Source: Alphaproteobacteria bacterium (GTDB lineage Bacteria; Pseudomonadota; Alphaproteobacteria; JAREAF01). From it: DNA of 64,000 nucleotides. The notes beneath the pieces were generated by a model. It did not search any database and was not told the DNA's origin. It was given only the letters and a program-made list of their open reading frames with translations. Both the position numbers and the translations under genes were made by a program. Positions 2,200 through 20,364 of the stretch are shown here, one piece after another (the first letter of the stretch is position 1; every line of letters starts with the position of its first letter). Location: NCBI GenBank assembly GCA_035620695.1, contig DASPGI010000126.1, positions 509-64,508 on the forward strand. Reading direction: 5' to 3'.

Positions 2200-2208
2200 G
2201 CCCGACCG

Positions 2209-3839: not shown

Positions 3840-3876
3840 AGGCCCGTTGGGCGGGTGCAGGCGGACCGCGCCGGGC

Positions 3877-3905
3877 TGGACAGGACCGGCCGAATTTCCT
3901 ATAAG
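3877..3905 (+). promoter_or_regulatory. Putative sigma70 promoter for tRNA-Phe
   Basis: TGGACA (3877-3882), 17-bp spacer, TATAAG (3900-3905), about 80 bp upstream of the tRNA. Confidence 0.65.
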
Positions 3906-3985
3906 CCCTGCCTCTGCCATAGGCCGCCCCCGGGATTTCGTACGCGGGGGCCGCGGCCCGCTTCCTCGACCAGAGAAGCCCCGGC

Positions 3986-4061
3986 GCCCAGGTAGCTCAG
4001 TTGGTAGAGCACGTGACTGAAAATCACGGTGTCGGTGGTTCGATTCCGCCCCTGGGCACCA
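3986..4061 (+). tRNA. tRNA-Phe (anticodon GAA)
   Basis: 76 nt GCCCAGGTAGCTCAGTTGGTAGAGC...GGTTCGATTCCGCCCCTGGGCACCA; anticodon stem CGTGA/TCACG with loop CTGAAAA; encoded CCA end. Confidence 0.98.
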
Positions 4062-4106
4062 TTGGTGCACTGCATCCTAATGATTCCAATGGGTTACCAC
4101 CCCGAT

Positions 4107-4146
4107 TTGTCCCACCCGCCCGTTCGGAATCTCCAAGGTGGGACAA
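4107..4146. repeat. Inverted pair of putative integrase arm-type sites (left end of element 1)
   Basis: TTGTCCCAC (4107-4115) and GTGGGACAA (4138-4146) are exact reverse complements; the motif recurs at 6482 and 8098. Confidence 0.6.
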
Positions 4147-4240
4147 TCGGTTCGTAAAACGTACTCAGTTCTGCCGTCGGCCCCTGCTCGTTTTGCTGAT
4201 CGTCTAGCCCTGGCGACACATTCGAAAGTGGCGCACGCTG

Positions 4241-4783
4241 TTGCCCGCTAAGACTGTGGTCGGGCGTGTGATGCAAAACTTCCGGGAGGTGCGCCGCATC
4301 TCGAATGCCTATGCCAGCGGAATCGGGCGTGTCATTTCGCGATGGGCATATCTGGAGTGGCTGCTGACCGATATTACCCATCGGGTGCTTGGGATGGGTC
4401 CGAAGCAAGGGAGGTTGGTGGTCAGGGATGCTCGCGCCTATGAGCGCGTTGAGACGATCGACACGCTCATGCGATTGCGGCAGTTGAAAACGAGCGTCGA
4501 CCTGAAACAACTCGCCAGTGACCTGAAATCCGCAGAGAGCGATCGGAATTTGCTCGCTCATGGGATGTGGATCAAGCACCCACGCACGGGCAAGCTGCAC
4601 GTATGGTTCATCAGAGGAAACTGGCGCCCCGATCCGAAACAGCCCAAGGTCAGTAGGAAGATCAAACCTGAAGCGGTGCGGAAGGCGCCTGCGGATCTGA
4701 GGGCTTGCTATAAGGCGATCGATCGCCTGATTGGCGAGCTGAGGAATCTGCAGGCGGAAGTCGAGAAGGCTGTCACACCTTAA
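4241..4783 (+). CDS. Hypothetical protein with HEPN-like R-x4-H motif
   Basis: Predicted all-helical; IGRVISRWAYLE N-terminal helix and DRNLLAHGMW motif; start may be 4270. Confidence 0.6.
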   Translation: MPAKTVVGRVMQNFREVRRISNAYASGIGRVISRWAYLEWLLTDITHRVLGMGPKQGRLVVRDARAYERVETIDTLMRLRQLKTSVDLKQLASDLKSAESDRNLLAHGMWIKHPRTGKLHVWFIRGNWRPDPKQPKVSRKIKPEAVRKAPADLRACYKAIDRLIGELRNLQAEVEKAVTP

Positions 4784-4827
4784 AGGGGCGAGGGCGTGAT
4801 CGGCATCCAAGGGGAGGAGAAATCGCG

Positions 4828-5295
4828 ATGCTTCGACGCACGATGATAGGTGTTCTTGCACTTTGCGCCTTTGCAGCGTCTGCCGTTGTATATGCCCAAA
4901 CCGCCCAGTTCGGCACGCCTGAAGAAGCTCGGGCCCTGCTCGACAGGGCTGTCACAAGTATGAAGGCAGATCCGGCCAATACGATTGCTCAGATCAACAA
5001 AGGTGAAGGGGGGTTCAAAGATCGCGATCTCTATGTGTTCTGCTATGCCGATGGCAAGGTTGTCGCTCACGGAAATGACCCCACGCGGGTCGGCATGCTA
5101 ACAAAAGACCTGAAGGACACATCTGGAAAGCTGTATGGCGAGGAAATGCTCAGGGCTGCAGAAGAGGGCAAGATCGCGGAAGTCAGTTACATGTTTCCAC
5201 GGCCCGGATCTGATACGACGCCTGTGTCAAAAGTTGCGCTTGTGACCAAGGTGACTGATCACGTGTGTGCGGTAGGATACTACAAGCAGAACTAG
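4828..5295 (+). CDS. Secreted stand-alone single Cache-domain protein
   Basis: Signal peptide (MLRRTMIGVLALCAFAASAVVYA); TPEEARALL...FKDRDLYVFC...VVAHG...LKDTSGK...VSYMFPRPG...K...VCAVGYY Cache pattern; GGAGGAG RBS. Confidence 0.85.
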   Translation: MLRRTMIGVLALCAFAASAVVYAQTAQFGTPEEARALLDRAVTSMKADPANTIAQINKGEGGFKDRDLYVFCYADGKVVAHGNDPTRVGMLTKDLKDTSGKLYGEEMLRAAEEGKIAEVSYMFPRPGSDTTPVSKVALVTKVTDHVCAVGYYKQN

Positions 5296-5317
5296 AACCT
5301 TAGCCGGCATATCGCGG

Positions 5318-5803
5318 ATGACGGAGGGGTCTATATTGCCCAGCCAACCGGCAGTGTCGAAAAAGAGCACTCGACTTCTTCCGGTCACTACCCTGAGCGA
5401 GCCCGCATTGACGGCCATCGGCGATGTGGTCGCGGAATTTGGACGGATCGAATATGATACGAAGCTGGCGATAAAAAACATGGTGGGCGATTTCACCAAA
5501 GGCTTAATCGAAGCCGAGAAGCTGCACCGTTTCAGTGCAATCGCCGATCACGCTATTGCGAAGGCAGAAAAGCAATTTGGCGCTAAGAAGGCAAAGCGCC
5601 TAATTGGCCTAATCAAAGCCGCGAAAAAGCTGACGCCTTTCCGCAATGACGTAGTGCATGGCTGCTGGTTCGCGGATGATCGATTGGTGCGAATGGAATT
5701 CAAGAAACCCCATAGCCTAAAGCACCACAACTACATTGTTCGACTGGACGAATTGCAAGCTCTTGCTGACCGGCTTCGGGCGACCCGTCTGGAAATTCAC
5801 TGA
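5318..5803 (+). CDS. Hypothetical protein with HEPN-like R-x4-H motif (paralog-like to 4241-4783)
   Basis: AIGDVVAEFGRIE helix and FRNDVVHGCW motif at similar spacing to the first ORF. Confidence 0.6.
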   Translation: MTEGSILPSQPAVSKKSTRLLPVTTLSEPALTAIGDVVAEFGRIEYDTKLAIKNMVGDFTKGLIEAEKLHRFSAIADHAIAKAEKQFGAKKAKRLIGLIKAAKKLTPFRNDVVHGCWFADDRLVRMEFKKPHSLKHHNYIVRLDELQALADRLRATRLEIH

Positions 5804-5890
5804 GAGCGCTTTTTGATCTTCGGGCAGAAGCCGCCCGAGGAACAAAATCAGGCTGGGCCATGATCGGCTATACCATGGATTGCCAGTCGG

Positions 5891-6415
5891 TCATACGTAG
5901 ATGCCGAACTCCCAAGGCTGCTTGCCGGCTTCGCGAAGCCGGTCATTCGCATCTCGAAGCATACGCCTCAAGCGGTCTTGCTCCTTACGCACGAGATCGG
6001 CGTCTCGACGGATTTGGCCGCTGTTGCGCAGCATTGAAACGATCAACTCCCAGCTTGGCGCATCCTTATCACAAAAGGGGAGCGGGGACGACGGTTCGCC
6101 TGCCTCCCTCAGCGATTTCAATCAGTCCTGCCCAATCGGGGATCTCCTCTGTCTTGAGGAGGGCGGGCGGCGTCACATAGTAGAAGCGGTCACTGAACAG
6201 CGAGCTTCGCGCTGCTTGTTGTAGGTGTCCCGACGATAGTCCGCCCGCGATACTTTGATCTCGTAGGCTGTCGCCAGATAGCCCTTCGACTGCCACGGCG
6301 CGATTGTCCAGAAGTCGCATCGACGATCGCCGGTTGAAAGCGCGAGTTCGCTGGCCCAAATCATGCTGTCGTCACAGCTTGCGATAAGTGAATCGAGAAT
6401 GTCTTCTGCGGTCAT
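5891..6415 (-). pseudogene. MmcB-like PD-(D/E)xK nuclease pseudogene with two frameshifts
   Basis: Three frames join: MTAEDIL...RRCDFWTI...YEIKVSRADYRRD..KQREA / LFSDRFYYVTPP...EEIPDWAGLIE...VPAP / CDKDAPSWELIVSMLRN; shifts near 6200 and 6075. Confidence 0.7.
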
Positions 6416-6481
6416 GTCCTCGCATAACGCGATGTTACACGGTGCGCAACGAATAAGTGCAAAAGCCAAAGATCGCATGCG

Positions 6482-6591
6482 GTGGGACAAAACGGTTTGT
6501 AAGCCCTTGAAACACTATGGGACGAATCGCAGTCCCACCGGCCTGTATGTGATTGAAATACAAGACTTTATGCAGACCGCCCCTGGGCACC
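6482..6591 (+). repeat. att-like right end of element 1 (arm motifs plus tRNA-Phe 3' core)
   Basis: GTGGGACAA 6482-6490, TGGGACGAA 6518-6526, GTCCCAC 6532-6538, core CCGCCCCTGGGCACC 6577-6591. Confidence 0.75.
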
Positions 6592-6689
6592 GCTATAGGG
6601 CAGCGCGCCATACCGCGCAACAGTGCTGACGTCGTACAAAGTGATATCCAGGGACTTGTCCATCCCCTGCTAAGTCTCCGATTGTAAGA

Positions 6690-7110
6690 GGGGATATGCC
6701 CGTTCCAGAGCGCGCGTGCCGATAGTAGTCGGCAGATCGCGTGAAGATTTCAGCCAGGTTTAGGCTTTCCCATCCGAAAATCGCCATGAGCCGGTGCAAA
6801 TCCCGATTGGTGAGGGCGAGCTAAGCCACGTGGTCATAAGCCTCTGTGCCGCGCCGATTCCGGACGCGGTCTCGCTCAGACCATCAAGGATTTGGAGAAA
6901 GCTGCCGGTCTTGAAACGGCTGCGCCCGCAGGCGATGTGGCGAGCGTGTCCGGTGCGCCGTATTGGGATGGTTCCGTTCGTCATCGAAAAAACTTATGAA
7001 GCCAAAAGCTCATAGTGGCCACTCGGTCGAGCAAACTCGGCGAACACCCAAATTCCTCATGCCTCCGGCAATGTGGACATAGCGATTCTGACCCGAGGAC
7101 GTAACCGCAT
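6690..7110 (-). pseudogene. Decayed tyrosine recombinase (phage integrase) C-terminal remnant
   Basis: LHRLMAIFGWESLNLAEIFTRSAD resembles the integrase box II pattern (LMAIFGW...AExYTR); upstream DGLSE resembles an eroded HGLRK; several frameshifts, boundaries approximate. Confidence 0.65.
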
Positions 7111-7703
7111 CGGGAGCATATTATTACACGTTGCTGAACCTTCGGAGTTTGCTGCTCCATGTAAAGCGCTTTCCGCGCTACGGCGCCTGTGCTGTCGGGC
7201 CTTTAGTTCAACGATCCGATATGCCGGTTTCGCAACGTAACTCCCCTAATGACTGGATATGCGCACGTGCATCAAGAACGTCAACCAAGATTGGAAAAAT
7301 GCTGTCGAGGGGGCCACCGGCGGCAACGGGCCGCCGCTCGCCTTCAAGGCCCTGGAGCAGGCAAACACGGCGGGGCGCGGCTGGCGAGCATGCCGGGTGC
7401 GAGCCCAGAGCGGTGCCGTTGGACCGGGGGCCACCCTCGGTCACCTCTGCGAATCTCAATCCATCGGCGAGGATCGTCTATCGCTTCGGCTAGGCTGAAG
7501 ATTGTCCGACTGCGGGCGTATGGTTCCTGTCGCAACTTTGGCGCTACGGTGACTGATCCGGCGGTCAGAGTTGTGCTGGCCCCGTGCAGGGTCTGGCCGG
7601 GGATACATGGCCTCGCCCCGTGGGCGGCGGGCTTCCAATGGCGGCAGTAGCACGAGGTCTTGCCTGGCGCGAACATGAACCTGAGCCGCACTAGGGTGCA
7701 AGC

Positions 7704-8009
7704 ATGAGAGCATACGTCATAGTTCAAGAGACGATCAAAGACGAGGGTATGTTCGCTTTGTACCGGAACGGCGTGGTCGCCACCCTGCGGGAATATGGCG
7801 GCCGTTTCATTGTGCGCGGGGGCAGGCTGACTGTGATCGAGGGCGAGTGGCCGCATCCTCAACTGGTTGTGATTGAGTTCCCTTCGAGAGAAGCAGCTGA
7901 AGGATGGTATCAGTCCCCAGCCTACCAGAAGCTATTGCCATTACGGCTAAACAGTTCGGTCGGGAACTTCATCATTGTCGACGGAGCGATCGGAATTGAC
8001 TTCGTGTAA
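7704..8009 (+). CDS. DUF1330 domain protein
   Basis: AYVIV...YGGRFIVRGG...EGEW...VVIEFPSREAAEGWYQSPAYQ...LR. Confidence 0.9.
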   Translation: MRAYVIVQETIKDEGMFALYRNGVVATLREYGGRFIVRGGRLTVIEGEWPHPQLVVIEFPSREAAEGWYQSPAYQKLLPLRLNSSVGNFIIVDGAIGIDFV

Positions 8010-8097
8010 ATCTGCTGGCACCCCGATCTGTTTCCGCTCTGCCAAATCTCAGTGGTGGTTTCCGGTTCGCGTGTTGTGCTGGAAATCTACTCGCTGC

Positions 8098-8214
8098 GTG
8101 GGACAATTTTGTAAGTGCTTGATCCAGGATCCAGGATGGGAGAAGTTCTGCCCCTCCACCACCCGCCGCTAAGTGCTCGGATTAGGCCGTTACCTAAACC
8201 GCCCCTGGACACCA
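8098..8214 (+). repeat. att-like right end of element 2
   Basis: GTGGGACAA 8098-8106 followed by GTAAGTGCTTGA, then core CCGCCCCTGGACACCA 8199-8214; spacing close to that at 6482-6591. Confidence 0.7.
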
Positions 8215-8508
8215 TCTCTCCAAGGTATGAAGGCAACGGCCCGTCCGAAGCCCAGCAAGGCGTTCCCAAGTCCTGCAGGCATCCGAAAAGGCATGGGGCG
8301 AAGGTCCGGGCTCCGGCCTGGAGCCCTCTACATAAGGTACCGATCCGGGCTGTCGCACTCGATGCTTCGGTGCCGCAGCGGTCCATCTAGACGAAATCTA
8401 CGGTGAATTTCCTGCAATAAAAAAAATTGCAACGCTAGAACCCTGTCGCCGTTTCGTCATTCGATTCGACCCTTTGTCGACTTATCTGTCAATGTGTGGA
8501 GCGTGACG

Positions 8509-8949
8509 ATGCTGTTGGACCACCTGCGTCGAGATCATAGAGAAGTGCTTGATCTTCTGAAGGTGATAGGCGAAAGCGATGATGCCAGGGAGTGCGGTGC
8601 GCTTTTCAATGAATTCCGCAACAAAATGCTGGCGCATGCTCATGCCGAGCAGAAAGTTTTATATGCGCCCATGAGGCGCGACGAAGAATTCGAGGATACC
8701 ATTCTCGAAGCAATCGTCGAGCATGAGGTAGCTGAGGATCTCATTGAGCAGTTGTCGCGTGCCCGGGGAAAGGCGTCGGCGGAATGGCACGCCAAATGCA
8801 CGGTACTGAAGGAGATGATCGAGCATCACGTCGAAGAAGAAGAGAGTGAAATCTTTCCTGCCGCGCAGAACATGTTCGATGCACGGGAGCTGGAGGAAAT
8901 GGCCGAGAAATTTCAGGGCATGAAGGAGAAGGAGCAGCGCGCGGCGTAA
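8509..8949 (+). CDS. Hemerythrin/HHE cation-binding domain protein
   Basis: DH...HAHAEQ...EH...HHVEEEE repeated HHE motifs. Confidence 0.85.
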   Translation: MLLDHLRRDHREVLDLLKVIGESDDARECGALFNEFRNKMLAHAHAEQKVLYAPMRRDEEFEDTILEAIVEHEVAEDLIEQLSRARGKASAEWHAKCTVLKEMIEHHVEEEESEIFPAAQNMFDARELEEMAEKFQGMKEKEQRAA

Positions 8950-9312
8950 CAGACCTGAACCTTGTCCGGTACCGAAGTTTGCTCCGCTCAAGCCGAGAGA
9001 GACGAGTGATCACCGGATCGCAGCACCGCGCATGCCACATGGGATCTGCGAAAAGGTCGATCAGCCGTTAATCCATTGCGGATCGGCGTCCATGCTGTTG
9101 TGAAATCTGGAATGCGCTCAACGCTCGGCCGGAATGGCGATATGAATATCTGCGCCTGCGGTACTCCTTCAGCAGGATGATCTCGGCGGTATGCCTGCGG
9201 GCAAAAGGAATGGCCCTGGCACGCCACGATTGATCAATTGGCAGAATGAATGGAAGGACCAGAAATCCACAATAAGTGCCGATATAGAAGAAGGGAAACT
9301 TCATAGCCACGC

Positions 9313-9371
9313 ACCTCTGTCAAACCTCTGTCAAACAAGGCCTCCAAAGCCTCGCAATGAGTTGTCACAAC
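9313..9371. repeat. 11-bp tandem direct repeat plus 11-bp palindrome
   Basis: ACCTCTGTCAA x2 (9313-9334) and GTTGTCACAAC (9361-9371) in an AT-rich intergenic stretch. Confidence 0.5.
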
Positions 9372-9404
9372 GAAGCGCAGGAACTGGTTATCGAAATTTG
9401 GAAA

Positions 9405-9800
9405 CTAAACATGTGATCCGGGCCTTATGGATGGAAGGTCCATATTCATATTGCCACCGGAGGGAATTCCAAGCTGGCGGGGGTTCAGTTCCTGCCAGGA
9501 CTCACCCGTGGCGACCAGACAGCTCACGCCACCCGGTTGGCTCAGCATGATGCTCCAGGTCGAGCCGTCTTCGTTGGTTAGAACCTCTACCAGGGTGCCA
9601 TCATGGGCAAGGCCGACCGCGGCGGGAGTTTCTCTGTATTTTTCATGTAGTTGCGCCAGGATATCGTTGCGCGGGCCGCAGCTCGCTGGCGCTGCTTTCA
9701 CCGCGGATGGAACGGTAACTACGGCCGAGAGCGTAATTATTCCGACGTTTATGAGTTTGTTCTTCGCCTCAAATAAGGGCCCCTCAAATTCCTTCGGCAT
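9405..9800 (-). CDS. Conserved alphaproteobacterial secreted hypothetical protein
   Basis: Hydrophobic N-terminal segment, then CGPR...L...Y.E.P...GL...G.LVEV...G.TWSI...P.G.SCLVATGESW with two Cys; start uncertain. Confidence 0.65.
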   Translation of the reverse strand: MPKEFEGPLFEAKNKLINVGIITLSAVVTVPSAVKAAPASCGPRNDILAQLHEKYRETPAAVGLAHDGTLVEVLTNEDGSTWSIMLSQPGGVSCLVATGESWQELNPRQLGIPSGGNMNMDLPSIRPGSHV

Positions 9801-10218
9801 TTTTACCTCCTACACAGGAAAATTGCCGACGACATTGCGATTGCTTCACTATTTCGTTTGAGAGCCATTACACTACGTTTCAACGATCCATCTACAGAAC
9901 GACGATCGAAAGAACGCGTTTCGATTTTATAGGAATTTTATGAAAGGCTGTGCTGTGGGGTACATTCGCTCGGGAATGGCAAAAGCGAGAGAGCCGCGAG
10001 CTGCTCGCGCGCCCGATCAGAAATGCGCTACCGATCTTCGCATGTGTTCCGACCTCCGCATCGTCGCGTTCTTCATCGGTCACAGGAATTGACGAAGCGG
10101 AGGAGAGGCGATGCAGAGCATGGCGTGGTCACCATCATGCACAGCCTCGGCGATTGGACGAAGATCGGTTCGAGATTGGCACGAGGGGGGGAGGCGGATC
10201 GATCGCAACTGTGCGTTC

Positions 10219-11040
10219 TCAGCGAGCCGATCTATGTCCCTGGACAATTTCCCGTATGAGCGAATTTACGATGTCGGGGCGATGACCGAATGCCGAGCCG
10301 TGCCCGAGGCCTTCCAGGAGATGGAACTGGCCCTGCGGCGCGGCATCGGCGATGACTTTGCCGCGCGCCGGCGGCGTCTGCACGTCGTGTGAGAACGCCA
10401 CTACGTGCAACGGTACCTTGCAGGACGGCAGGCGCGGCAGCGAGTCATAGTCCACGCACGCCTGCCACTGTTCGGCGAGCGCCGCGCCGTCGCGGTTTCC
10501 GTAATCGCGGGCCACCACGGGGCGCACCTTCGACCACATCTCGTCGTCGCCCAGCACCTCGGCCGGATACATGAGAACAGCGTAGTGAGCGAGGGCGAAC
10601 TCGCGCGAAAGAGTTCCACCGGCGCGGCGGAACTCGATCTCCGCATCCTCCCATTCCTTGATGAAGCCCGTCTTGCGCGCGCAGGTGCCCATGATGATCG
10701 CGGCTCGAACCAGATCGGGACGGGTAAGCGATACCTCTTGCGCGATCAGCGATCCCATCGACAGACCGACCAGGAACACGGGCGGCTTGCAGCATCTCTC
10801 GATCAGCTGCGTGCAGTCGGCGGCATGGACCTCGATGGGCCATGGTGGCGGCATGTGGGAGATTGTGCGTCCCACGCCGCGCGCGTCCCAGGTCGTGTTC
10901 CTGAAATCCGCGAATGCGGGCAGCTGATACTCGTGCCAGCTCGCTCCCGGCATGTCGCCGGCGGCGAGCCATACGATGTCCACTCCAGCGCCTGTTTGAT
11001 CGTACCAAATTCTCGCCTGTGGAAGATCGAGGTAGGCCAT
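10219..11040 (-). CDS. Alpha/beta fold hydrolase
   Basis: WDARGVG, nucleophile elbow GLSMG, C-terminal Asp (HDVQ) and His (LGHG). Confidence 0.88.
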   Translation of the reverse strand: MAYLDLPQARIWYDQTGAGVDIVWLAAGDMPGASWHEYQLPAFADFRNTTWDARGVGRTISHMPPPWPIEVHAADCTQLIERCCKPPVFLVGLSMGSLIAQEVSLTRPDLVRAAIIMGTCARKTGFIKEWEDAEIEFRRAGGTLSREFALAHYAVLMYPAEVLGDDEMWSKVRPVVARDYGNRDGAALAEQWQACVDYDSLPRLPSCKVPLHVVAFSHDVQTPPARGKVIADAAPQGQFHLLEGLGHGSAFGHRPDIVNSLIREIVQGHRSAR

Positions 11041-11222
11041 GGCGCTCTTGCCCCGCCGAAACGTTGACTCTCATCACCGACTATAGTCTTATTGGAATAT
11101 TACTTCTTTTACTCGAAGCGGTAGGACAGAATCAAACCGAACAGCTTGCTTCGAGCGCCAGGCGTTTTCTCGTTCCGGTAACGCGATCAGCCCCAGGGAG
11201 TTCTGCTCGGCAGAATATCGGC

Positions 11223-12782
11223 ATGAGCGACAGAAACAGACAAGCCAGCATACGCGGTCCGAAGTTCACGAGGCGCCAGATGATGGGCGCCACGCTTGCC
11301 GGCACGGCGCTCTACACTGTCCCCGGTCTTTCCCCCGCGGCAGCGGCAAAGAAGGGTGGTGTGCTGAGTGTCGGAGCGACCGGTGGCGGAGCCAAGGATC
11401 ACCTCGACGCCCACAATCCCGTCGGATATCCGGATATCGCGCGCACCTACGCCCTTTACGAGCCGCTGCTGAATCGCAATCCCAACTACGAGTATGAGCT
11501 GTTGCTGGCGGAGGAGATCTCGGCCAATCCAAGCGCCGATGTGTGGACTATTCGCCTCAAGCAGGGCACCGAGTTCCACAACGGCAAGACTGTGACGGCG
11601 GATGATGCCATCTCGTCCATCCAGCGGATCATCAACCCGGAGAATCCGAAGGTTGGCGCCGCGGGCCTGACCGACATCGATCCGCAGGGTTTCAAGAAAC
11701 TCGACGAACGCACCTTTTCAATTCAGCTCAAGCAGCCATTTGCGGTATTCGACGAGCAACTGGGCCAGTACTTCAATGGCATCGTTCCGACAGACTATGA
11801 CCCGAACAATCCTGTCGGCACGGGCCCCTTCAAGTTTGGAAGCTTCACGCCCGGAGAGCAAAGCCGCTTTCCCGCCAATCCAAACTACTGGAGAGAAGGC
11901 GAGCCCCATGTTGACGAGCTCGTGATCATCGACTTTCCGGACGACACAGCGCGCGTGAATGCTCTACTCAGCGGCCAGGTGCAAGCCATCGACAATTTGC
12001 CGCTTGGGCAGCTTCGGGCGGTGGAGGCGACCCCGGAGCTGAAGGCGCTCGTCGCGAACACCGGCGCTTGGCTGCCGTTCACGATGCGCGTGGACCAGCC
12101 TCCGTTCGACGATGTGCGGGTGCGCCAGGCCTTCCGGCTTATCGTCGATCGCCAGCAGATGATCGACCAGGCGCTCGCCGGTCAGGGCTGGATCGGCAAC
12201 GATCTCTACTCGCCATTCGATCCGTGCTACGCCTCGCATCTGCCGCAGCGCCAACAGGACCTTGAGAAGGCGAAGGCTTTGCTGAAGGAAGCGGGCAAGG
12301 AAAATCTGGTGGTCGAGCTGGTGACGTCGCCGGTGGCGGCGGGAGTCGTGGAAGCGGCACAGGTGTTCGCCGAACAGGCCAAAGGTGCGGGCGTCACGGT
12401 CAACATCCGCAAGGTCGACAGCGGGGTGTTCTACGGCGACGACTATCTCAAATGGACCTTCGCGCAAGACTTCTGGTTTACGCGCGATTACATTCCGCAG
12501 GTCGCCCAGGGCAGCCTGCCGACGGCGCCATACAACGAGACGCACTGGGCCGACCCGACCTTCATCCAGCTCATCGATCAGGCCCGTGGCACGCTCGATG
12601 GGGCCAAGCGCTGCGAGCTGCTGCACCAAGCCCAGCAGATCGAATATGAGAGCGGCGGCTACATCATCTGGGGTTTCCGCAATCAAGTGGACGCCCATAG
12701 CGCGAAGATCGATGGATTCGTGCCGGCGAAGACGGGAACGCCCCTCGGTAACTACGCCTTTGGAAAGGTCTACTTCGTGTAG
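11223..12782 (+). CDS. ABC transporter substrate-binding protein, family 5 (peptide/nickel), Tat signal
   Basis: TRRQMMG twin-arginine leader; FHNGKTVTADD, PVGTGPF and DVRVRQA motifs. Confidence 0.92.
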   Translation: MSDRNRQASIRGPKFTRRQMMGATLAGTALYTVPGLSPAAAAKKGGVLSVGATGGGAKDHLDAHNPVGYPDIARTYALYEPLLNRNPNYEYELLLAEEISANPSADVWTIRLKQGTEFHNGKTVTADDAISSIQRIINPENPKVGAAGLTDIDPQGFKKLDERTFSIQLKQPFAVFDEQLGQYFNGIVPTDYDPNNPVGTGPFKFGSFTPGEQSRFPANPNYWREGEPHVDELVIIDFPDDTARVNALLSGQVQAIDNLPLGQLRAVEATPELKALVANTGAWLPFTMRVDQPPFDDVRVRQAFRLIVDRQQMIDQALAGQGWIGNDLYSPFDPCYASHLPQRQQDLEKAKALLKEAGKENLVVELVTSPVAAGVVEAAQVFAEQAKGAGVTVNIRKVDSGVFYGDDYLKWTFAQDFWFTRDYIPQVAQGSLPTAPYNETHWADPTFIQLIDQARGTLDGAKRCELLHQAQQIEYESGGYIIWGFRNQVDAHSAKIDGFVPAKTGTPLGNYAFGKVYFV

Positions 12783-12916
12783 CGCTCGGCAGCGGCGAGA
12801 GGGGTAGGGAACAGCCAGAGCGCTCCGGGCGGGGGCGCCTCAGGGTACGCGAGGACGGCGCGTCCGATCGCGCCGTATCGGCGTGTGATTACTCCACCAT
12901 ATGGGATCATAGCGGC

Positions 12917-13870
12917 ATGATCCGCCTGATCTTGCGTCGCTTGGGACTGGGCATTCTCACGCTCTGGTTCGTGTCTCTCGTGGTGTTCGCGGCGACGCAG
13001 GCCCTATCGGGGGACGCCGCCACGGCTCTGCTGGCCAGAACCGCTACGCCCGAGCGGCTTGCGGCGCTGCGTGCGCAACTGCATCTCGACGACCCGGTCT
13101 GGCTGCAATACGTCAAGTGGTTGGGCGGATTGGTCACCGGCGATCTAGGCCGGTCCATGGCAACGCAGAAGCCGGTGGCGGAGCTGATCGGTTTGCGGAT
13201 CGGCAACTCCGCGTTCCTTGTTCTTGTTGCGGCGTTGATCGCCATTCCCGCTTCGATGGTGATAGGGATTGCCAGTGCCGTGCGCCGCGACCGCGGCGTC
13301 GACCACGTGCTCACGATGCTGTCGCTAGTGCTGGCCGCGCTCCCTGAGTTCGTGATTGGCATAGCTCTTATCCTGATCTTTGCCACCGGCTTCTTTCATG
13401 TGCTGCCTGCCGTGGCCTTGCTCGATGACACCCGTCCAATCTGGCAGCAGTTCGATCAGATTCTCCTTCCCGCCCTTACCCTCGACCTCGCGGTGATTCC
13501 ATACATGGCCCGTATCATGCGTGCATCGATGGTTGAGGTGCTGGAAAGCGAGTATGTACAAATGGCGCGGCTCAAGGGCCTGCCGCAGCGGCTGGTGATC
13601 CTGCGCCACGCACTGCCCAATGCGATCGTTCCGGCCGTGCAGGTTACGGCCTTGCAGCTTGCATGGCTCGCCGGCGGCGTGGTCGTGATCGAGTATGTGT
13701 TCCGTTACCCCGGCATCGGCCAAAGCCTGATCGACGGCGTCGCCAATCGGGATCTCCCGGTTGTGCAGGCGTTGAGCCTGCTGGTCGGCGGACTTTACGT
13801 GGCGTTCAACTTATTGGCGGACGTGGTCACGATCCTCGTGACGCCGAAACTGCGGACGAGCCTGCAATGA
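12917..13870 (+). CDS. ABC transporter permease (DppB/OppB-like)
   Basis: GDLGRS and EAA loop (EVLESEYVQMARLKGL), multiple TM helices. Confidence 0.92.
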   Translation: MIRLILRRLGLGILTLWFVSLVVFAATQALSGDAATALLARTATPERLAALRAQLHLDDPVWLQYVKWLGGLVTGDLGRSMATQKPVAELIGLRIGNSAFLVLVAALIAIPASMVIGIASAVRRDRGVDHVLTMLSLVLAALPEFVIGIALILIFATGFFHVLPAVALLDDTRPIWQQFDQILLPALTLDLAVIPYMARIMRASMVEVLESEYVQMARLKGLPQRLVILRHALPNAIVPAVQVTALQLAWLAGGVVVIEYVFRYPGIGQSLIDGVANRDLPVVQALSLLVGGLYVAFNLLADVVTILVTPKLRTSLQ

Positions 13871-14769
13871 GCGGCATCCCAGGCGTGCAGGTGGCAGCTC
13901 CAACAGCAGGACCGAAAGCCCTCCGGGCTCCCTGGCTGCAAACCCTGCTCGCATCGTCGCGTTTCGCGCGCACATGGATCGGGTTGGGCATCACGGCGGC
14001 GGTCGTCGCGGTGGCGCTTCTGGGACCTGTGTTCGCTCCCTACTCTCCCACCGAGTTCGTGGCACCGCCCTATGAGCCGCCGTCGAGCGAGGCGTGGCTT
14101 GGCACCGACAATCTCGGCCGCGACGTGCTCAGCCGGTTCCTGTGGGGCGGGCGCTCGGTGCTAGGGCTTTCCATCCTCGCAACTGTGTTCGGGCTGGGTC
14201 TTGGCATTCTGGTTGGGTTGATATCGGCCTATACGCGCAATTGGATCGACGATGTCTTGATGCGCGCGATGGACGTTCTGCTCGCCTTTCCGCAGATCGT
14301 GTTCGTGCTGCTGTTGATCTCCAGCGTAGGGCCGCAGCTTTGGCTGATAGTGGTCACGGTGGGTCTGTCGCATGCGCCGCGCGTCGCTCGTGTCACCCGC
14401 GGTGCTGCGCTGGAGGTGGTCGAGCGAGATTTCGTCAGGTCCGCCGAGGCGTTGGGAGAAACGCGTTGGAGCATCCTGGTGGGTGAGCTTCTGCCGAACA
14501 TCTCTTCTCCGCTGCTTGTGGAGTTTGGGCTGCGCCTGACCTACTCCATCGGGCTGGTTGCCGCCGTCAGTTTCCTGGGATTTGGGCTGCAGCCGCCGGC
14601 AGCGGACTGGGGATTGATGATCAATGAGAATCGGATCGGCCTTACGATACAGCCCTGGCCGGTGGCGCTGCCCGTGATCGCCGTCGGCCTCCTGACTGTC
14701 GGGACCAATCTGATTACGGATGGGATTGCGCGCGCCGCTATCGGCATAGGTCGGAGCAGCGCCGCGTGA
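13867..14769 (+). CDS. ABC transporter permease (DppC/OppC-like)
   Basis: WLGTDNLGRDVLSR, DFVRSAEALG and LGFGLQPP.ADWG motifs; ATGA overlap with the upstream gene. Confidence 0.92.
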   Translation: MSGIPGVQVAAPTAGPKALRAPWLQTLLASSRFARTWIGLGITAAVVAVALLGPVFAPYSPTEFVAPPYEPPSSEAWLGTDNLGRDVLSRFLWGGRSVLGLSILATVFGLGLGILVGLISAYTRNWIDDVLMRAMDVLLAFPQIVFVLLLISSVGPQLWLIVVTVGLSHAPRVARVTRGAALEVVERDFVRSAEALGETRWSILVGELLPNISSPLLVEFGLRLTYSIGLVAAVSFLGFGLQPPAADWGLMINENRIGLTIQPWPVALPVIAVGLLTVGTNLITDGIARAAIGIGRSSAA

Positions 14770-16577
14770 ACATGCCCGTCGTGAAGATAGCCGGTTTGCG
14801 CATCGGCCTTGCCGGCTCGGCCTTCGATATCGTCGACGAAATCGATTTCCAGATCGGACAGGCCGAGATCGTGGGGCTCGTAGGCGAATCGGGCTCCGGC
14901 AAGACGACGGTCGGCCTCGCCCTGTTGGGATTTTGCCGACGCGGCGGAACGATCGAGGCCGGCCACATCACCATCGCCGGACGCAGCCTGCTCGAGCTGG
15001 GAACGGCTGCGCTGAATGCCGCACGCGGCCAAACCGTGGCCTACATCCCGCAGGATCCCTCGGCCGCACTTAATCCGGCTCTTCGGATCGGCCTGCAGCT
15101 CGAGGAGATGCTCGCGGTTCACCAGCCCGGTCTCGACGACGCCGAGCGCCGCAAGCGCGTGCTCGAGATGCTCGAGGAAGTCAAGCTGCCGACGCAAGAG
15201 CCCTTCCTGAAGCGCTACAAGCATCAGCTATCCGGCGGCCAGCAGCAACGGGTGGCGCTGGCCATGGCGTTTGCCTGTCGGCCGACGGTCATCGTGCTCG
15301 ACGAGCCGACAACCGGTCTTGACGTGACCACCCAGGCCCATGTGCTCGAAACCGTTCGAACCTTGTGCCGCCACTACGGCGTGGCTGCACTGTATGTAAG
15401 CCACGATCTCGCCGTCGTGGCGTCGCTGGCCGACCGGGTGCTGGTGATGTATGCGGGCCGCATCGTGGAGTCGGGCCCGGCCGCCGTGCTTTTTCGCAAT
15501 CCAGCCCACCCCTATACGCGAAGGCTGATCGCCGCGATTCCCGATCTGCACAGGAGACGCAATCTTGTCGGCATCCCGGGCCATGCGCCCTCGCCTGCGC
15601 AGCGCCCCTTGGGCTGCACTTTCGCGCCGCGCTGCGACTATGCGACCGGCGAGTGTCGCGCCCAATTTCCATCGGTTGAGATCATAGCGGCGCACCACTC
15701 CGTACGCTGCTGGCATCACGCGCGCGTTCAGGCCCGTGGCGATGCGCTTTCGGGGAGCGTGGGGGGCGCCGCAAGCCGGGCGTCGGCTGACCCAACCTCT
15801 CCGTTGCTTGCCGTCCGCGATCTTTCTGCCTGGTACGGTCGCCAGCCGGTACTTCACAAAGTGAGCCTGACGCTGGAAGCCGGTGAGTGCATGGCAGTGG
15901 CCGGTGAATCCGGAAGCGGCAAGACCACGTTGGCGCAATGCGTCGCCGGATTGCATCCGACTTTCTCGGGAGAGGTGATGCTCGCGGGCAAGGTGCTGGA
16001 GCCTCAGGCCCGGCGACGGCCGCGTTCGGTGCGCCGGGCGATTCAGTATGTGTTCCAAAGCCCTTATGCTTCGCTCAATCCGCGTCGCACCGTCGGCCAG
16101 ATCGTCGCGCGTCCTCTATACGTGTTCTTCGACGTCGGACACCGGCAAGCGCGGGAACGCGTGGCCGCCCATCTTGAGCGGGTGGCGTTGAGCCCGGCCT
16201 TGATCGACCGGTACCCGGATCAGTTGAGCGGTGGCGAGCGCCAGCGTGTCGCGCTTGCGCGCGCGCTCGCGGCCGACCCGCAGGTCCTTGTGTGCGATGA
16301 GGTGACATCGGCGCTGGACGTTTCTGTGCAGGCTGCCCTTGTCGAGTTGCTGGCGGAACTGCAGCGCAGCATGAATCTGGGCTTGTTGTTCATCACCCAC
16401 AATCTCGCATTGATCCGCACCATCGCCGACCGGGTTGCGGTCATGAGCGGTGGGCGCATCGTCGAAAGCGCTGAGGTTGAATCGGTTTTCGGCTCACCGA
16501 AGGCGGACTATACGCGAGAGCTTCTGGCCAACAGCCCCAGCCTGGATTCGCATGCCCCGATCAGCCAATCTGTATGA
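14766..16577 (+). CDS. Fused double-ATPase ABC subunit (DppD/F-like)
   Basis: Two Walker A motifs (GESGSGKT), two LSGG signatures, DEPT/DEVT Walker B. Confidence 0.93.
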   Translation: MNMPVVKIAGLRIGLAGSAFDIVDEIDFQIGQAEIVGLVGESGSGKTTVGLALLGFCRRGGTIEAGHITIAGRSLLELGTAALNAARGQTVAYIPQDPSAALNPALRIGLQLEEMLAVHQPGLDDAERRKRVLEMLEEVKLPTQEPFLKRYKHQLSGGQQQRVALAMAFACRPTVIVLDEPTTGLDVTTQAHVLETVRTLCRHYGVAALYVSHDLAVVASLADRVLVMYAGRIVESGPAAVLFRNPAHPYTRRLIAAIPDLHRRRNLVGIPGHAPSPAQRPLGCTFAPRCDYATGECRAQFPSVEIIAAHHSVRCWHHARVQARGDALSGSVGGAASRASADPTSPLLAVRDLSAWYGRQPVLHKVSLTLEAGECMAVAGESGSGKTTLAQCVAGLHPTFSGEVMLAGKVLEPQARRRPRSVRRAIQYVFQSPYASLNPRRTVGQIVARPLYVFFDVGHRQARERVAAHLERVALSPALIDRYPDQLSGGERQRVALARALAADPQVLVCDEVTSALDVSVQAALVELLAELQRSMNLGLLFITHNLALIRTIADRVAVMSGGRIVESAEVESVFGSPKADYTRELLANSPSLDSHAPISQSV

Positions 16578-16604
16578 CACCGACGGCACAGCGCTCTGCG
16601 GACA

Positions 16605-17591
16605 ATGACCATGGAACGATACAACATGCTCCAGGACGAAGGTATCCGCCGATTCGTGCTGGAGTCGGAATCATTGCGTCCCGCATACGCTGCCGGCGCC
16701 GCGATCGCCGAGCAGCGGATTTTCTACGACCGGCTATGCAGGCATTTTCGACGGCCGCGGCCGATTGGAATAGAGGTTCAAGACCTCTTCGTGAATGGTC
16801 CTGATGCAAGTGTATCGATTCGGCTCTACCGTCCAATGACCATAGGTTCGCTGCCCGCTCTGCTCTATTTGCATGGCGGCGGCTATATGCTGGGCGGTCT
16901 GGACAGCCATGACGATATTTGCGCCGAGATCGCCGACCGGGCCGGCGTTGCCGTCATCGCCATTGCCTACCGGCTTGCGCCGGAAGACCTGTTCCCGGCC
17001 GCCTTTGAAGACTGCCGGGCGGTACGCGATTGGGTCGCTTGCAGCGGTGCGGAACACGGCATCCGTTCCGACACCATCGCCATCGCAGGCGACAGCGCCG
17101 GAGGCGGTTTGGCGGCGGCTTTGGCGCTCGATGCCCGGGATAGAGGGGCGCCGCGGATCTCGGGGCAAATCTTGGTCTATCCCGACCTTGGCGGTGATAC
17201 GAGCAAGGGCTCTTATGTGGAACATGCCCAGGCGCCCGGCCTCACCACTGACGATGTCCGCTGTTATCGCTCAGCCTATCTCGGATCTTCCGTGGACCCC
17301 GCGCTGGGGAGCAAGTTCGCTCATCCCTTGAGGGAAAGCAGCTTTGACGGCGTTGCTCCGGCCTTTCTGGTCGCGGCCGAATGGGACCCCTTGCGCGACG
17401 ATTGCTTCGAATATGCCGGGCGTCTGCAAGCTTGCGGGGTTCCCGTCACCGTGCGACACGAGCCGCTGCTCGTGCATGCATTCTTGCGCGCGCGCCACAT
17501 GAGCAAACCCGCCGCCGAAAGCTTCACCGCCATTGCGGCAGCGGTTCGGTCTCTTGCCTACAAGAAGGAGCTGCCGTTGCAGGCCGCTTAG
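16605..17591 (+). CDS. Hormone-sensitive-lipase family esterase (alpha/beta hydrolase_3)
   Basis: HGGG oxyanion motif, GDSAGG nucleophile, DPLRDD, HAF. Confidence 0.9.
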   Translation: MTMERYNMLQDEGIRRFVLESESLRPAYAAGAAIAEQRIFYDRLCRHFRRPRPIGIEVQDLFVNGPDASVSIRLYRPMTIGSLPALLYLHGGGYMLGGLDSHDDICAEIADRAGVAVIAIAYRLAPEDLFPAAFEDCRAVRDWVACSGAEHGIRSDTIAIAGDSAGGGLAAALALDARDRGAPRISGQILVYPDLGGDTSKGSYVEHAQAPGLTTDDVRCYRSAYLGSSVDPALGSKFAHPLRESSFDGVAPAFLVAAEWDPLRDDCFEYAGRLQACGVPVTVRHEPLLVHAFLRARHMSKPAAESFTAIAAAVRSLAYKKELPLQAA

Positions 17592-18142
17592 GTCCGGATC
17601 GAGGCGAAGAGCGCTTCGACCGTGCCCTTGTGCTTGTCGAAATAGTGCAGGCGCGCCCCGGTATAGAGAATGAGATGGAGCCCGCCGTCTCGGCGCGCGC
17701 CTAGGACCGTGCCGAGCCCGTCCAATCCGCTTGGATACTGGAAGGAGAGATCGAACCGGAATCCGGGCCAGGCCCCAAACGGCGCGGGGCGCAAGTTGGC
17801 GGCGGTGACGGAATGCGCTCCGGTCGAGATCAGGCTGTCGACGACGAACTCCATGATCTCGCTTTCGCTCATCGTGGGGCGATAGGTGGGCGCATGCTTC
17901 TCGCCGAGGACACGGTAGAGGGTGTCGCCTTCCTCGAGCCCCGTTATGAATCCGAGTTGCTCCAATAGCGGCCCGTCAACGGTCCAGGTTTCGCGCTTGC
18001 CGTCTTGGGTTCGGCTCCAAGCTATCTGCGGATCGATGCTGTAGGCGTCTTTGATCGTGATCCGGGTCGGCGCGACCTCGGCATAGCTCGTGCAGCCGGC
18101 TAGGAGGAGGATCGCCATTACCAGGGACAGGCAGCGAAACAT
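17588..18142 (-). CDS. Hypothetical lipoprotein
   Basis: Lipobox LLLAGC; co-transcribed downstream of the M48 gene. Confidence 0.7.
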   Translation of the reverse strand: MFRCLSLVMAILLLAGCTSYAEVAPTRITIKDAYSIDPQIAWSRTQDGKRETWTVDGPLLEQLGFITGLEEGDTLYRVLGEKHAPTYRPTMSESEIMEFVVDSLISTGAHSVTAANLRPAPFGAWPGFRFDLSFQYPSGLDGLGTVLGARRDGGLHLILYTGARLHYFDKHKGTVEALFASIRT

Positions 18143-18153
18143 CGAGCGCTCCG

Positions 18154-19311
18154 TCAGGATGGGGAGGCAAGCCAGGCTTCGATCATCGCGCGGTCGGGTG
18201 CGTCGGGCGCCAGTCGGAGATACTCGGTGAAGGCCGCGCGCGCCTCCTCGGGCTTCCCCATCCGACGATAGACTTCGCCAAGACCGCGCCGCGCCTCGGC
18301 CGGCCCGTCCGGTTGGGCGAGCGCAGCCTGATATGCCTCGACGGCCTTGCGCTCATCGCCGTCCTCCCCGCGTAGCCGGTACAGTTCGCCCCGGTAGTAA
18401 GCGATCTCGCCACGATTGCGGCCGGCATGGTCCAGATGATCGAGCACGACTTCCGTTCGCCCGAAATTCCGCCGCCGCAGCTCGTCGCGCAACCACTTGC
18501 CTCTGAACGGCAAGGTCGCCGCCAGATACGCATCCTCGTTGGTCGCACCTTCCGTCGCGGCCGCGATTGCGGCAAGGGCGCCGAGGTTCTTCACGCGCTC
18601 TTGCATGCCCGGATGGGTGGCGAAGAAAAAGAACGGCTGATTCTCCTCGCCGGCCTCGCTCTCCTCGATCAGCGCTTGCCAAAGTGCCACTGCCTCGTCG
18701 GGATCGTACCCGGCCTGGACCATGCGCTCGAAGCCGATGGCGTCGGCCTCGCGCTCATGGTCCCTGCCATAGGCCATAAAACCGCCGACCGCGGCCAGAT
18801 CGACCGCATAGCCGGCAACGCCGACGCCCGCCCCTGCCAGGACGATGTTCGCGAACAGCATGAAGTTTGAGGTGTCCTTGGCCGCACGCCACTGCTTGAC
18901 CGTATGCCGGCGCTGATAGTGGCCGATCTCGTGCCCCAGGATATAGGCGAGCTGCGCCTCGTTCCGGCAGCGCAGCATCAGGCCAGTCCATACCGACATG
19001 AACCCGTTCGGGGCCATGCTCGCGTTGAATTCGGGAACTTCGACGAGATAGATGCGGATATCCGCACACAGCTCCGGTGCGACCTTGCAGGCGACGGAGC
19101 GCAGATAGGCGTTGAGGGCGGGGTCCTCAACCACGCGGCCGGAGCTGCGCAGATTGGCTTCCGCCCGCTCCATGACCAGCCAGAGCCCCGCTTCGTCGCT
19201 TTGTTCGGCGGGCCGGTCCCCCGGCGCGATGTCGGCGACCTTCGCGGCGCTGACGCATCCGGCAAGCAGCAGGCCAAGGATCGCGGCGCGGCCGACCCTT
19301 CCCCTCGTCAC
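18154..19311 (-). CDS. M48 family Zn metalloprotease lipoprotein with C-terminal TPR
   Basis: Lipobox LLAGC; NASMAPNG, HEIGH, E.EAD and THP motifs; TPR-like C-terminus. Confidence 0.9.
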   Translation of the reverse strand: MTRGRVGRAAILGLLLAGCVSAAKVADIAPGDRPAEQSDEAGLWLVMERAEANLRSSGRVVEDPALNAYLRSVACKVAPELCADIRIYLVEVPEFNASMAPNGFMSVWTGLMLRCRNEAQLAYILGHEIGHYQRRHTVKQWRAAKDTSNFMLFANIVLAGAGVGVAGYAVDLAAVGGFMAYGRDHEREADAIGFERMVQAGYDPDEAVALWQALIEESEAGEENQPFFFFATHPGMQERVKNLGALAAIAAATEGATNEDAYLAATLPFRGKWLRDELRRRNFGRTEVVLDHLDHAGRNRGEIAYYRGELYRLRGEDGDERKAVEAYQAALAQPDGPAEARRGLGEVYRRMGKPEEARAAFTEYLRLAPDAPDRAMIEAWLASPS

Positions 19312-20063
19312 AAAGGGATGCCCTCCAACAGCGTCTCGATGCTTTTTCTGGCAGGTTCCCGTTCCCGAAGATCCAAGGTCTCGCTGAAGAGAACGTTGAA
19401 CCAGACGATGTCGCCGGTCTTGAGGTCGACGAGCGAGGCAAAACCTTGCTGTTGCCCGCCGGGCATGCCGATTCCTAGAACTGCCATCCCGATTATCATT
19501 GCCGTTCGTCCCGCGCTCGAATAGCTGTCGCGCAGGAAGACGAAGAGCGCGTAGTCGGCGCCAAAATCGCGCTGCAACGCGGCAGCCTCCGTACCCAGGG
19601 TCCAGTCGAACTGCCCCTTCTTTCCGGGCAGCTGGGCAAATCCGCTGTGCTGATGCAGCAGAATGGAGTTGCCCACCGCCTCGTGCAGTTTCACCAGTTG
19701 CGTATGCTGACGCTCGCGCTCAAGGTCGCCTTGCGGGGGTTGATAGGCGATCAGGTTCGCATCGCGCGCGCCGATCAGATCGTCGAGCGCGCTCCCCACA
19801 TGATCCTTGGCCGCGGCCGTCCAGTCGGCCCGTGGCTCGACAAGGCCGCTCGCGGTCAGAAGGTAGAGCTCGATATCCGGAGGCATGAGGAGGATGCGCG
19901 CCGTTTCGGCCGGCCGCGCCGCGACGGTCGTCGGGCCATAGTCATGGGTCCGCGTGCAGGCGGCAAGCGCGATGAGGATCAGAAGCAGATGCGCAACTCG
20001 GCGCGCCCAACAGGTCCACGCCGACGGCACATCAACCGCACCAGGTGCAACGCCCCCCGACAT
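19308..20063 (-). CDS. Hypothetical lipoprotein
   Basis: Lipobox IALAAC; ASLVDLKTGDIVW C-terminal motif; start uncertain (20063 or GTG 20030). Confidence 0.7.
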   Translation of the reverse strand: MSGGVAPGAVDVPSAWTCWARRVAHLLLILIALAACTRTHDYGPTTVAARPAETARILLMPPDIELYLLTASGLVEPRADWTAAAKDHVGSALDDLIGARDANLIAYQPPQGDLERERQHTQLVKLHEAVGNSILLHQHSGFAQLPGKKGQFDWTLGTEAAALQRDFGADYALFVFLRDSYSSAGRTAMIIGMAVLGIGMPGGQQQGFASLVDLKTGDIVWFNVLFSETLDLREREPARKSIETLLEGIPL

Positions 20064-20314
20064 GGCACGGCACATCCGAGGAATTGATTGTGCAACTTTA
20101 GCGGAATCAGCGGATTGCGACAAGATTCCTACAGTCGTTGCAAACGGTTTACCCAAGCAGTGCCGCGGGTACCCCATCCGCCAGAAGCTAAAGGCACCTG
20201 GACAAGGCCCATGTCCCTGATTTGCCCGGCGTGGATCCAGCCTCCACGAGTACGGGACAAATTGGATTGGAGAGTTTTCGATGGGCTTTCTGCTATAGCT
20301 TGCGTGACCCCTAG

Positions 20315-20341
20315 GGTGTCGGTGGATCGATTCCGCCCCTG
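20315..20341 (+). repeat. Degenerate copy of tRNA-Phe 3' half (attR-like)
   Basis: 26/27 identity to 4028-4054. Confidence 0.8.
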
Positions 20342-20364
20342 TGTATCACAGCCATCTCCGCCAA

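Follow-up and report, generated by a model that had tools for sequence, protein, structure and literature searches.

A probable tandem array of decayed, integrase-less elements at the tRNA-Phe gene of an uncultured soil alphaproteobacterium

Positions 4062-20348 of the 64-kb stretch analysed here (the window; contig DASPGI010000126.1, from a soil alphaproteobacterial metagenome-assembled genome) are very probably a tandem array of integrated elements, two certain and one probable, which entered by tyrosine-integrase insertion at the 3' end of a tRNA-Phe gene and whose integrase genes were then deleted. The att core is formed by the last 16 nt of tRNA-Phe (4046-4061, CCGCCCCTGGGCACCA), which serves as the attL of the array, and three copies of this 3' end follow downstream in the orientation of the tRNA (Table 1). 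A preliminary description, made from the sequence alone, had read these copies, at 6577 (15/15), 8199 (15/16) and 20315 (26/27), as the ends of a stack of three elements, and all of the coordinates were verified. No additional core copy was found within 8215-20314 with up to two mismatches allowed; a possible extra CGTGAC at 20303-20308 matches the anticodon stem of tRNA-Phe. Taken by themselves the 15-mer repeats have weak significance, since 3 of 100 shuffles yield three matches with two mismatches, and they become convincing because they are joined with conserved flanking arms and integrase relics.

The locus also has the composition and layout of a genomic island. The GC profile that had been proposed as a check shows the drop: GC is 0.70-0.73 before the tRNA, 0.52-0.60 over 4.0-10 kb, 0.57-0.66 over 10-20.5 kb and 0.66-0.70 farther downstream, so that the first 6 kb stand clearly below flanks of about 0.70. 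The tRNA-Phe gene is whole at one end, and the direct repeats of its 3' end lie at the other.

Integrase relics carry the argument further. The preliminary description held that no intact integrase is present, and this is true of the 64-kb window, both in family scans of the open reading frames (ORFs) over 4-21 kb and in a search of the six-frame translated window with an integrase hidden Markov model (HMM); relics, however, had gone unnoticed. The sole significant HMM match (E = 7.6e-5, HMM positions 319-348) is the relic in element 2, which four metagenome integrases used as tblastn queries also detected (E from 2e-6 to 3e-3). It spans the catalytic-tyrosine block, with Phe in place of Tyr, and there are stop codons upstream of it. 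The match begins about 115 bp to the right of core copy 1, which is the expected site for the 3' end of an element 2 integrase, and window positions 6703-6797 share about 76% nucleotide identity with the integrase 3' end that adjoins tRNA-Phe, intact-looking, in a related genome (locus L114). Element 1 holds a weaker integrase-tail reading, and the minus strand of 4062-4248 is probably a more decayed remnant of an integrase gene, of which it would represent the final ~60 codons. Element 3 gave no integrase signal by HMM or tblastn. It is the presence of these relics that argues for derivation of the elements by deletion.

Table 1. Coordinates of the features at and beside the tRNA-Phe locus, in positions of the window.
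Feature	Position	Strand	Content or basis
tRNA-Phe(GAA), intact	3986-4061	+	ARAGORN; Rfam RF00005, 71.8 bits; sole tRNA gene of the window
Element 1, without integrase	4062-6591 (2530 bp)	.	tRNA-Phe on left, exact 15-bp copy on right; GC 0.53-0.58
tRNA-proximal (P') arm, element 1	4062-4248	-	inverted pair TTGTCCCACC (4106-4115) / GGTGGGACAA (4137-4146)
Weaker integrase-tail relic, element 1	4102-4152	-	reading '..NRLSHL..GGTN..'; tblastn E = 0.28
Element 1 cargo ORFs	4241-4783, 4828-5295, 5318-5803, 5860-6224		four small ORFs
Distal (P) arm, element 1	6479-6576	+	GGTGGGACAA 6481-6490; TGGGAC 6522-6527; GTCCCACC 6532-6539, inverted
Core copy 1, attR of element 1	6577-6591	+	exact match to tRNA-Phe 3' end, 15/15
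Element 2, without integrase	6592-8214 (1623 bp)	.	between core copies 1 and 2; GC 0.56-0.60
Tyrosine-integrase 3' relic, element 2	6596-6820	-	reads HRLMAIFGWESLNLAEIFTRSAD; tblastn, HMM
Distal arm, element 2	8090-8214	+	GTGGGACAA at 8098, then core copy 2 at 8199-8214
Core copy 2	8199-8214	+	15/16 match to tRNA-Phe 3' end
Element 3, possibly composite	8215-20348 (about 12.1 kb)	.	Pfam genes; GC 0.52-0.55 over 8.2-10 kb, 0.57-0.66 beyond
Hemerythrin	8494-8949		element 3; Pfam; small stand-alone protein
Alpha/beta hydrolase	10219-11040	-	element 3; Pfam
Opp/Dpp-type ABC transporter, complete	10914-16577		element 3; Pfam
Esterase	16605-17591		element 3; Pfam
M48-TPR protease, flanking ORFs alongside	18154-19311	-	element 3; Pfam
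Right end, element 3	20254-20348	+	GGGACAA at 20254, then long tRNA-Phe 3' copy 20315-20348
Core copy 3	20315-20341, 26/27; extends to 20348, 30/34	+	includes T-arm; longest copy
Cation-efflux (CDF) gene, short	20365-20961	+	Pfam PF01545; conserved right flank

Comparison with relatives shows how the site is occupied elsewhere. Relatives were found via a homologous-protein search and then the contigs encoding those proteins; a contig scan queried with RNase G returned ~30%-identity matches only and no close relatives, an exact look-up of the window RNase G ORF gave no match, and the protein collection has as its nearest RNase G one of 84% identity to that of the window, whose gene (2209-3621) lies with Maf and YacG upstream of tRNA-Phe. 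The preliminary description had named alignment to relatives as a check, and the closest one, L081, indeed lacks window 4807-20359 between tRNA-Phe and the CDF gene: it aligns to window 1-4807 (86%) and to 20359-21252 (L081 14611-15512, 83%) only, and the intervening DNA is replaced by 2 kb that encode an unrelated solute-binding protein (26% identity). A decayed copy of the element 1 distal arm stands just upstream of the L081 CDF gene, directly followed by a stretch that aligns weakly with window copy 3. A second and more distant relative, L085, with an RNase G gene 73% identical at the nucleotide level, has a 2.56-kb element without integrase, bounded by a second copy of the tRNA end that matches exactly (16/16), with the same inverted GTGGGAC pair after the tRNA and with GGTGGGACAA 93 bp before the core copy. 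This element and element 1 are homologous at their ends only (77.5% over window 4000-4248 and 84% over 6479-6591), and their cargo is unrelated. In L083, a 72% relative, a 3.6-kb island without integrase (8059-11725) sits at tRNA-Phe, carries an AbiEii/DUF6088 toxin-antitoxin-like pair and is bounded by a 46-bp tRNA-Phe repeat that reaches from the anticodon loop to CCA and is followed by another 10 similar nt. L082, L087 and L112 each have different DNA after tRNA-Phe. The tRNA-Phe gene itself is 100% identical in the window, L081, L082, L085 and L087, and because the relatives carry differing DNA and islands after it, we regard it as a hotspot across the lineage. L112, with an RNase G gene 74% identical to that of the window, also offers a separate observation: the first ~45 nt after its tRNA-Phe (6857-6900) are 89% identical to window 4062-4106, the first 28 nt being identical, while the motif pair is there replaced by GTCCC...GGGAC.

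That motif pair belongs to a set of short repeats which the preliminary description had proposed as arm-type integrase sites. It stated that GGGACAA precedes each downstream copy of the tRNA end (GTGGGACAA at 6482 and 8098, GGGACAA at 20254) and that an inverted pair follows tRNA-Phe (4107-4113 on the minus and 4140-4146 on the plus strand), and we could confirm each position. Across the 64 kb GGGACAA is not enriched overall, with 7 occurrences against 5.4 expected, yet 5 of the 7 are clustered no farther than 110 bp from a core copy (binomial P = 1e-8), and the same holds for 5 of the 10 occurrences of GTGGGAC (binomial P = 1e-7). The arms around these motifs are conserved and structured. The P' arm of element 1 is 80% identical in L081 and 70-77% in L085, and its pair forms a hairpin of -22.5 kcal/mol (z = -2.3; the L085 counterpart has z = -3.6). 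The distal arm of element 1 likewise folds as an inverted pair (z = -3.7) and is related to the arm before copy 2 and to the decayed copy in L081; the arm of copy 3 is weakly similar to that of copy 1. Elements 1 and 2 and the L085 element thus share a pre-core sequence of ~100 bp with GGTGGGACAA, TGGGAC and an inverted GTCCCACC, and when the distal arm is joined to the post-tRNA pair the reconstructed attP would hold four or five GTGGGAC motifs within about 300 bp.

When the distal arms were compared by blastn with all fetched loci, matches were obtained in L085 and L081 alone. An Rfam E-value scan of 3800-21000 found the tRNA alone, so the conserved arms fit no described RNA family, and a terminator and promoter scan gave nothing beyond shuffle expectation. 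Viral contigs searched with the distal-arm pattern gave 0 matches; the inverted-pair pattern matched 4 of them, which we set aside as unrelated palindromes because they contain neither a tRNA nor any other similarity.

A search of metagenomes with a pattern consisting of the tRNA end, N20-50 and ATTTGTCCCAC, from which the partner arm GTGGGAC was left out, returned 20 contigs and led to a candidate parent family. The partner arm follows 8-22 nt later in most of the 20, and a minus-strand integrase (PF00589) or a truncated relic of one abuts the tRNA in 12 of them, or 7 of the 13 assessable distinct sequences. The intact integrases are 360-390 aa long, are encoded on the minus strand with the stop codon about 30 bp from the tRNA end, and match PF00589 and, weakly, PF22022, with no Arm-DNA-bind_3 domain. 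The family is large (4217 matches at E <= 1e-40), and among its named members are proteins of Magnetospirillum, Azospirillum and Rhodospirillaceae. The inverted motif pair falls within the final ~20 codons (..VPP....SGGTN.., then stop) of the integrase gene, which is why GGTGGGACAA reads Gly-Gly-Thr-Asn. Across metagenomes one element was met in two states, with a full-length integrase in L111 and with only the last ~78 residues kept in L099 and L100. One further element at this site, in the metagenome contig L094, has its tRNA end at 5364 and a second exact 16-bp copy 5346 bp downstream, which makes an element of 5.3 kb; it has no integrase-HMM match and only the first half of the motif pair.

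These comparisons also bear on the differing lengths of the core copies, from which the preliminary description had drawn at least two integrase specificities. That assumption is not needed. In L115 (Magnetospirillum sulfuroxidans, GCA_018224925.1) the 3' end of a family integrase is followed by a 51-nt tRNA-Phe fragment that runs from the anticodon stem to CCA, with no second copy of the fragment within reach, and the repeat of the L083 island is 46 bp; a single family can thus produce long repeats as well as short ones. Repeat length may instead depend on the extent of the tRNA-like sequence to the left of the crossover in each attP. The L115 locus has features of its own. The fragment is inverted, and a tRNA-Ser(GCT) gene lies 2.4 kb away; the stretch between the two (8768-11212) contains the family integrase, a weak MobC match and two small ORFs, and a P4-type integrase and conjugation genes come next. 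A triple motif cluster, GTGGGACAA-TA-GTGGGACAA...TTGTCCCA, stands 65-110 bp after the tRNA-Ser.

The parent elements very probably belong to a widespread alphaproteobacterial family in which the strand opposite to the tRNA carries the integrase gene and the stop codon of that gene falls about 30 bp beyond the tRNA. Integration restores the tRNA 3' end at attL and leaves a partial copy, of 16 to about 50 nt, at attR. Deletion of the integrase after insertion would then produce remnants resembling cis-mobilizable elements (CIMEs). As to the order of insertion, the newest element would be the one next to the tRNA, or else insertion occurred into an attR copy, and any present mobility would require an integrase supplied from elsewhere.

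Several observations weigh against this reading. Element 3 has neither an integrase relic nor a recognisable tRNA-proximal arm, and the GC content of about 10 kb of it is only slightly under that of the flanks. The integrase-tail relic of element 1 is weak (E = 0.28). The left 750 bp of element 1, including ORF 4241-4783, are 80-88% identical to L081, a host-like divergence that points to old vertical inheritance and not to a recent insertion, and which suggests that the left part of element 1, at minimum, is old. No intact element with both a parent-family integrase and a GTGGGAC-bearing distal arm was recovered. Finally, no excision, circle or empty-site joints appeared in the contigs of 8 soil metagenome runs.

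Of the three elements, then, the stack proposed in the preliminary description stands best for the first two: the hotspot, the repeats marking the ends, the relics in elements 1 and 2, the conserved arms and the absence of 4807-20359 from L081 all agree with it. Element 3 is the weakest, and may be of composite origin because it lacks an integrase relic and a tRNA-proximal arm and is of mixed GC. It is accordingly possible, though we think it the lesser prospect, that there were not exactly three insertions, and that 20315-20348 is an older scar from an ancestor shared with L081 while 8215-20314 may be composite. In that case a low-GC 1.8-kb piece and a transporter/hydrolase block of ~10 kb would have been gained or rearranged separately, or inserted in an existing attR copy. 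The GC step at about 10 kb fits such a history, as does the lack of a relic or proximal arm at 8215, and so does the pre-CDF stretch of L081 that follows its decayed arm-1 copy and aligns weakly with copy 3. On the other side, copy 3 is the longest of the copies (30/34), its motif spacing is comparable (79 bp to CCGCCCCTG, against 93 and 99 bp), and 8215-20314 is free of the further core copies that were sought there.

A second question concerns the motifs rather than the elements. That GTGGGAC(AA) motifs are candidate arm-type binding sites of the parent-family integrase is plausible from their arrangement: the motif keeps its positions in L085 and L081, in many metagenome elements and in the Magnetospirillum locus. 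What the proposal had not foreseen is that in intact elements the post-tRNA pair lies inside the last codons of the integrase gene and forms a terminator-like hairpin. Since no intact element joining integrase and distal arm was recovered, the arm-site role rests on position and conservation. The motifs could instead be no arm-type sites at all, the pair being a tRNA-Phe terminator hairpin or merely integrase-tail codons (GGTN), and the distal copies binding some other factor or being coincidental. We hold this to be a possible but somewhat unlikely account. In its favour are the place of the pair within the last ~20 integrase codons, the stability of the hairpin, and a T-rich run that follows the pair on the tRNA strand in about half of the distinct loci; the length of the loop, moreover, ranges over 8-22 nt without keeping to multiples of 3, which indicates constraint at the nucleic-acid level. 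Such an account leaves aside, however, that an identical 8-9-mer stands in the distal arms of three elements, 1, 2 and that of L085, ~95 bp from the core and far from integrase coding sequence, and that a triple cluster follows tRNA-Ser in L115. As for a terminator in particular, the tail after the window hairpin is not T-rich and the terminator scan made no call there.

The preliminary description had also suggested looking for excised circles, and this gave nothing of the kind. At least 20 metagenome runs, from soil and fertilizer, contain near-identical DNA. In 8 runs, which come from at least 6 studies, the contigs extend over all three segments and cross the junction at each of the core copies 1, 2 and 3; the joints were sought in these contigs, which drop rare variants, so that low-frequency excision could have escaped the search. 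The array is fixed in all sampled strains. The strains do differ in one detail, a segment of ~100 bp in the tRNA-proximal arm of element 2 (6600-6700), which in the window is inverted relative to L114, to which 6613-6700 aligns plus/minus at 72%, and relative to strains of runs X2, X4, X10 and X17. Opposite-strand joints (6599/6698 and 6601/6701) occur in these four runs and in minor contigs of X1 and X3; contigs of the four carry the L114 orientation, and X1 and X3 contain both. An imperfect 16-nt inverted repeat (6593-6608 / 6710-6725) flanks the segment. With both orientations found among strains, 6600-6700 is a small inversion polymorphism in the relic arm.

These data are relevant to a further alternative, namely that elements 1 and 2, like that of L085, are not remnants but maintained integrase-less cassettes of ~1.6-2.6 kb, with conserved recombination arms and exchangeable cargo, which a same-family integrase encoded elsewhere would still mobilise in trans. 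We consider this unlikely, though it accommodates several findings. Element 1 and the L085 element share their ends only, with homology stopping at the same points and wholly different cargo, and the core copies are exact or near-exact. Identity between the window and L085 is 84% in the non-coding distal arm, 73% in the RNase G genes and 66% in the yacG-tRNA spacer, while the same arm is decayed to 63% in L081; this hints at constraint on the arm or at a more recent common ancestry of the elements, in a comparison of only ~100 bp and two genomes. Intact family integrases that might act in trans are present at tRNA-Phe in related genomes (L114). Against a maintained cassette stand the missing excision and empty-site joints and the host-like divergence of the left part of element 1 from L081. 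A fuller version is likewise doubtful: here a selected family of cassettes would carry arms of ~100 bp and ~190 bp, each with an inverted GGTGGGAC pair, would use a common alphaproteobacterial tRNA-Phe integrase in trans, and would have an integrase tail that doubles as the tRNA-Phe terminator. Chance repeats or an assembly chimera of this metagenome-assembled contig are very improbable, for although shuffled sequence can give three 15-mer matches with two mismatches (3/100) and unitigs break inside the tRNA, the actual copies match at 15/15 and 30/34, homologous arms precede them, a relic lies exactly at the expected site, the independent runs span all three junctions, and L081 confirms the link of the tRNA to element 1.

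A tandem array of decayed elements has close parallels among known systems. CIMEs and their tandem accretion at att sites were described for elements related to ICESt1 and ICESt3 in Streptococcus thermophilus and are reviewed in PMC5704250, whose definition and accretion model we follow. Like CIMEs, the window elements lack integration and transfer genes, have kept attL and attR, and are stacked head-to-tail at the 3' end of one gene, and a model of decay followed by new integration accounts for the array. Scans over 4-21 kb with Pfam, NCBIfam and PADLOC, together with the integrase HMM, found relics only; attL and attR with core and arms were found for elements 1 and 2, and for element 3 a core with a weak distal arm only. 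The S. thermophilus CIMEs differ in host, in target and in integrase family, the present host being a soil alphaproteobacterium and the target tRNA-Phe; in addition, the window contains no functional partner element, and no mobilisation joints occurred in the contigs of the 8 runs.

IntS, the integrase of ICEMlSymR7A, is expected to carry a P4-type domain. The integrases related to the window relics differ from it in having their 3' end toward the tRNA, with the stop ~30 bp away, and in lacking Arm-DNA-bind_3. This integrative and conjugative element (ICE) also targets the 3' end of tRNA-Phe in an alphaproteobacterium. Its attP of 283 bp contains five P/arm-type sites, all of which are needed for integration; TGKTGGTATC is the arm motif of IntS, whose gene directly adjoins attL on the downstream side (PMC11963761). 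The attP reconstructed here, of about 280-300 bp with ~five candidate arm-type motifs flanking the core, has a similar layout. The window motif, however, is GGTGGGACAA and not TGKTGGTATC, which sets the elements apart from the ICESym/IntS group, and they are relics of 1.6-12 kb where the ICE measures 502 kb. A third parallel is provided by small non-autonomous islands at tRNA or tmRNA sites that carry a tyrosine integrase, such as the tmRNA-site elements captured by Pseudomonas fluorescens SBW25, which keep their integrase (intY) and alpA and extend over tens of kilobases (PMC12595487). These islands also have a short direct repeat of the 3' end of an RNA gene (14 bp there), variable cargo and conserved end sequence, and they resemble the window elements in being without transfer genes and dependent on a helper (PMC12595487). 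The window elements, unlike them, have lost the integrase.

The cargo of the two smaller elements is sparse. In element 1 the only ORF with a family match is 4828-5295, a protein of 155 aa with a single Cache domain (Pfam sCache_2); NCBIfam gave only sub-threshold matches in this Cache region, PADLOC gave nothing for the element, and ORFs 4241-4783 and 5318-5803 have no match in Pfam, NCBIfam or PADLOC. The only recognisable gene of element 2 encodes a DUF1330 protein (7704-8009, E = 3e-29). Across both elements, sCache_2 and DUF1330 alone exceed threshold in the three collections. Element 3 holds most of the recognisable genes (Table 1). Beyond it, the CDF gene likely begins at the ATG at 20365, as judged from the sequence and the L081 gene call. 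This start is 17 bp past copy 3, so its promoter would lie in island-derived DNA, or the gene was formerly co-transcribed with the tRNA.

The locus is a familiar kind of genomic-island hotspot and calls for no new mechanism. Its value lies in documenting how a tRNA hotspot in an uncultured soil alphaproteobacterium has filled with decayed islands, and in tying the repeats to a specific, very abundant and uncharacterised family of tyrosine integrases, for which it supplies a candidate arm-site motif, GGTGGGACAA, and an attP layout. For annotation it means that 16 kb of ordinary-looking genes, for Cache and DUF1330 proteins, a hemerythrin, a peptide ABC transporter, an esterase and an M48 protease, would be accessory DNA.

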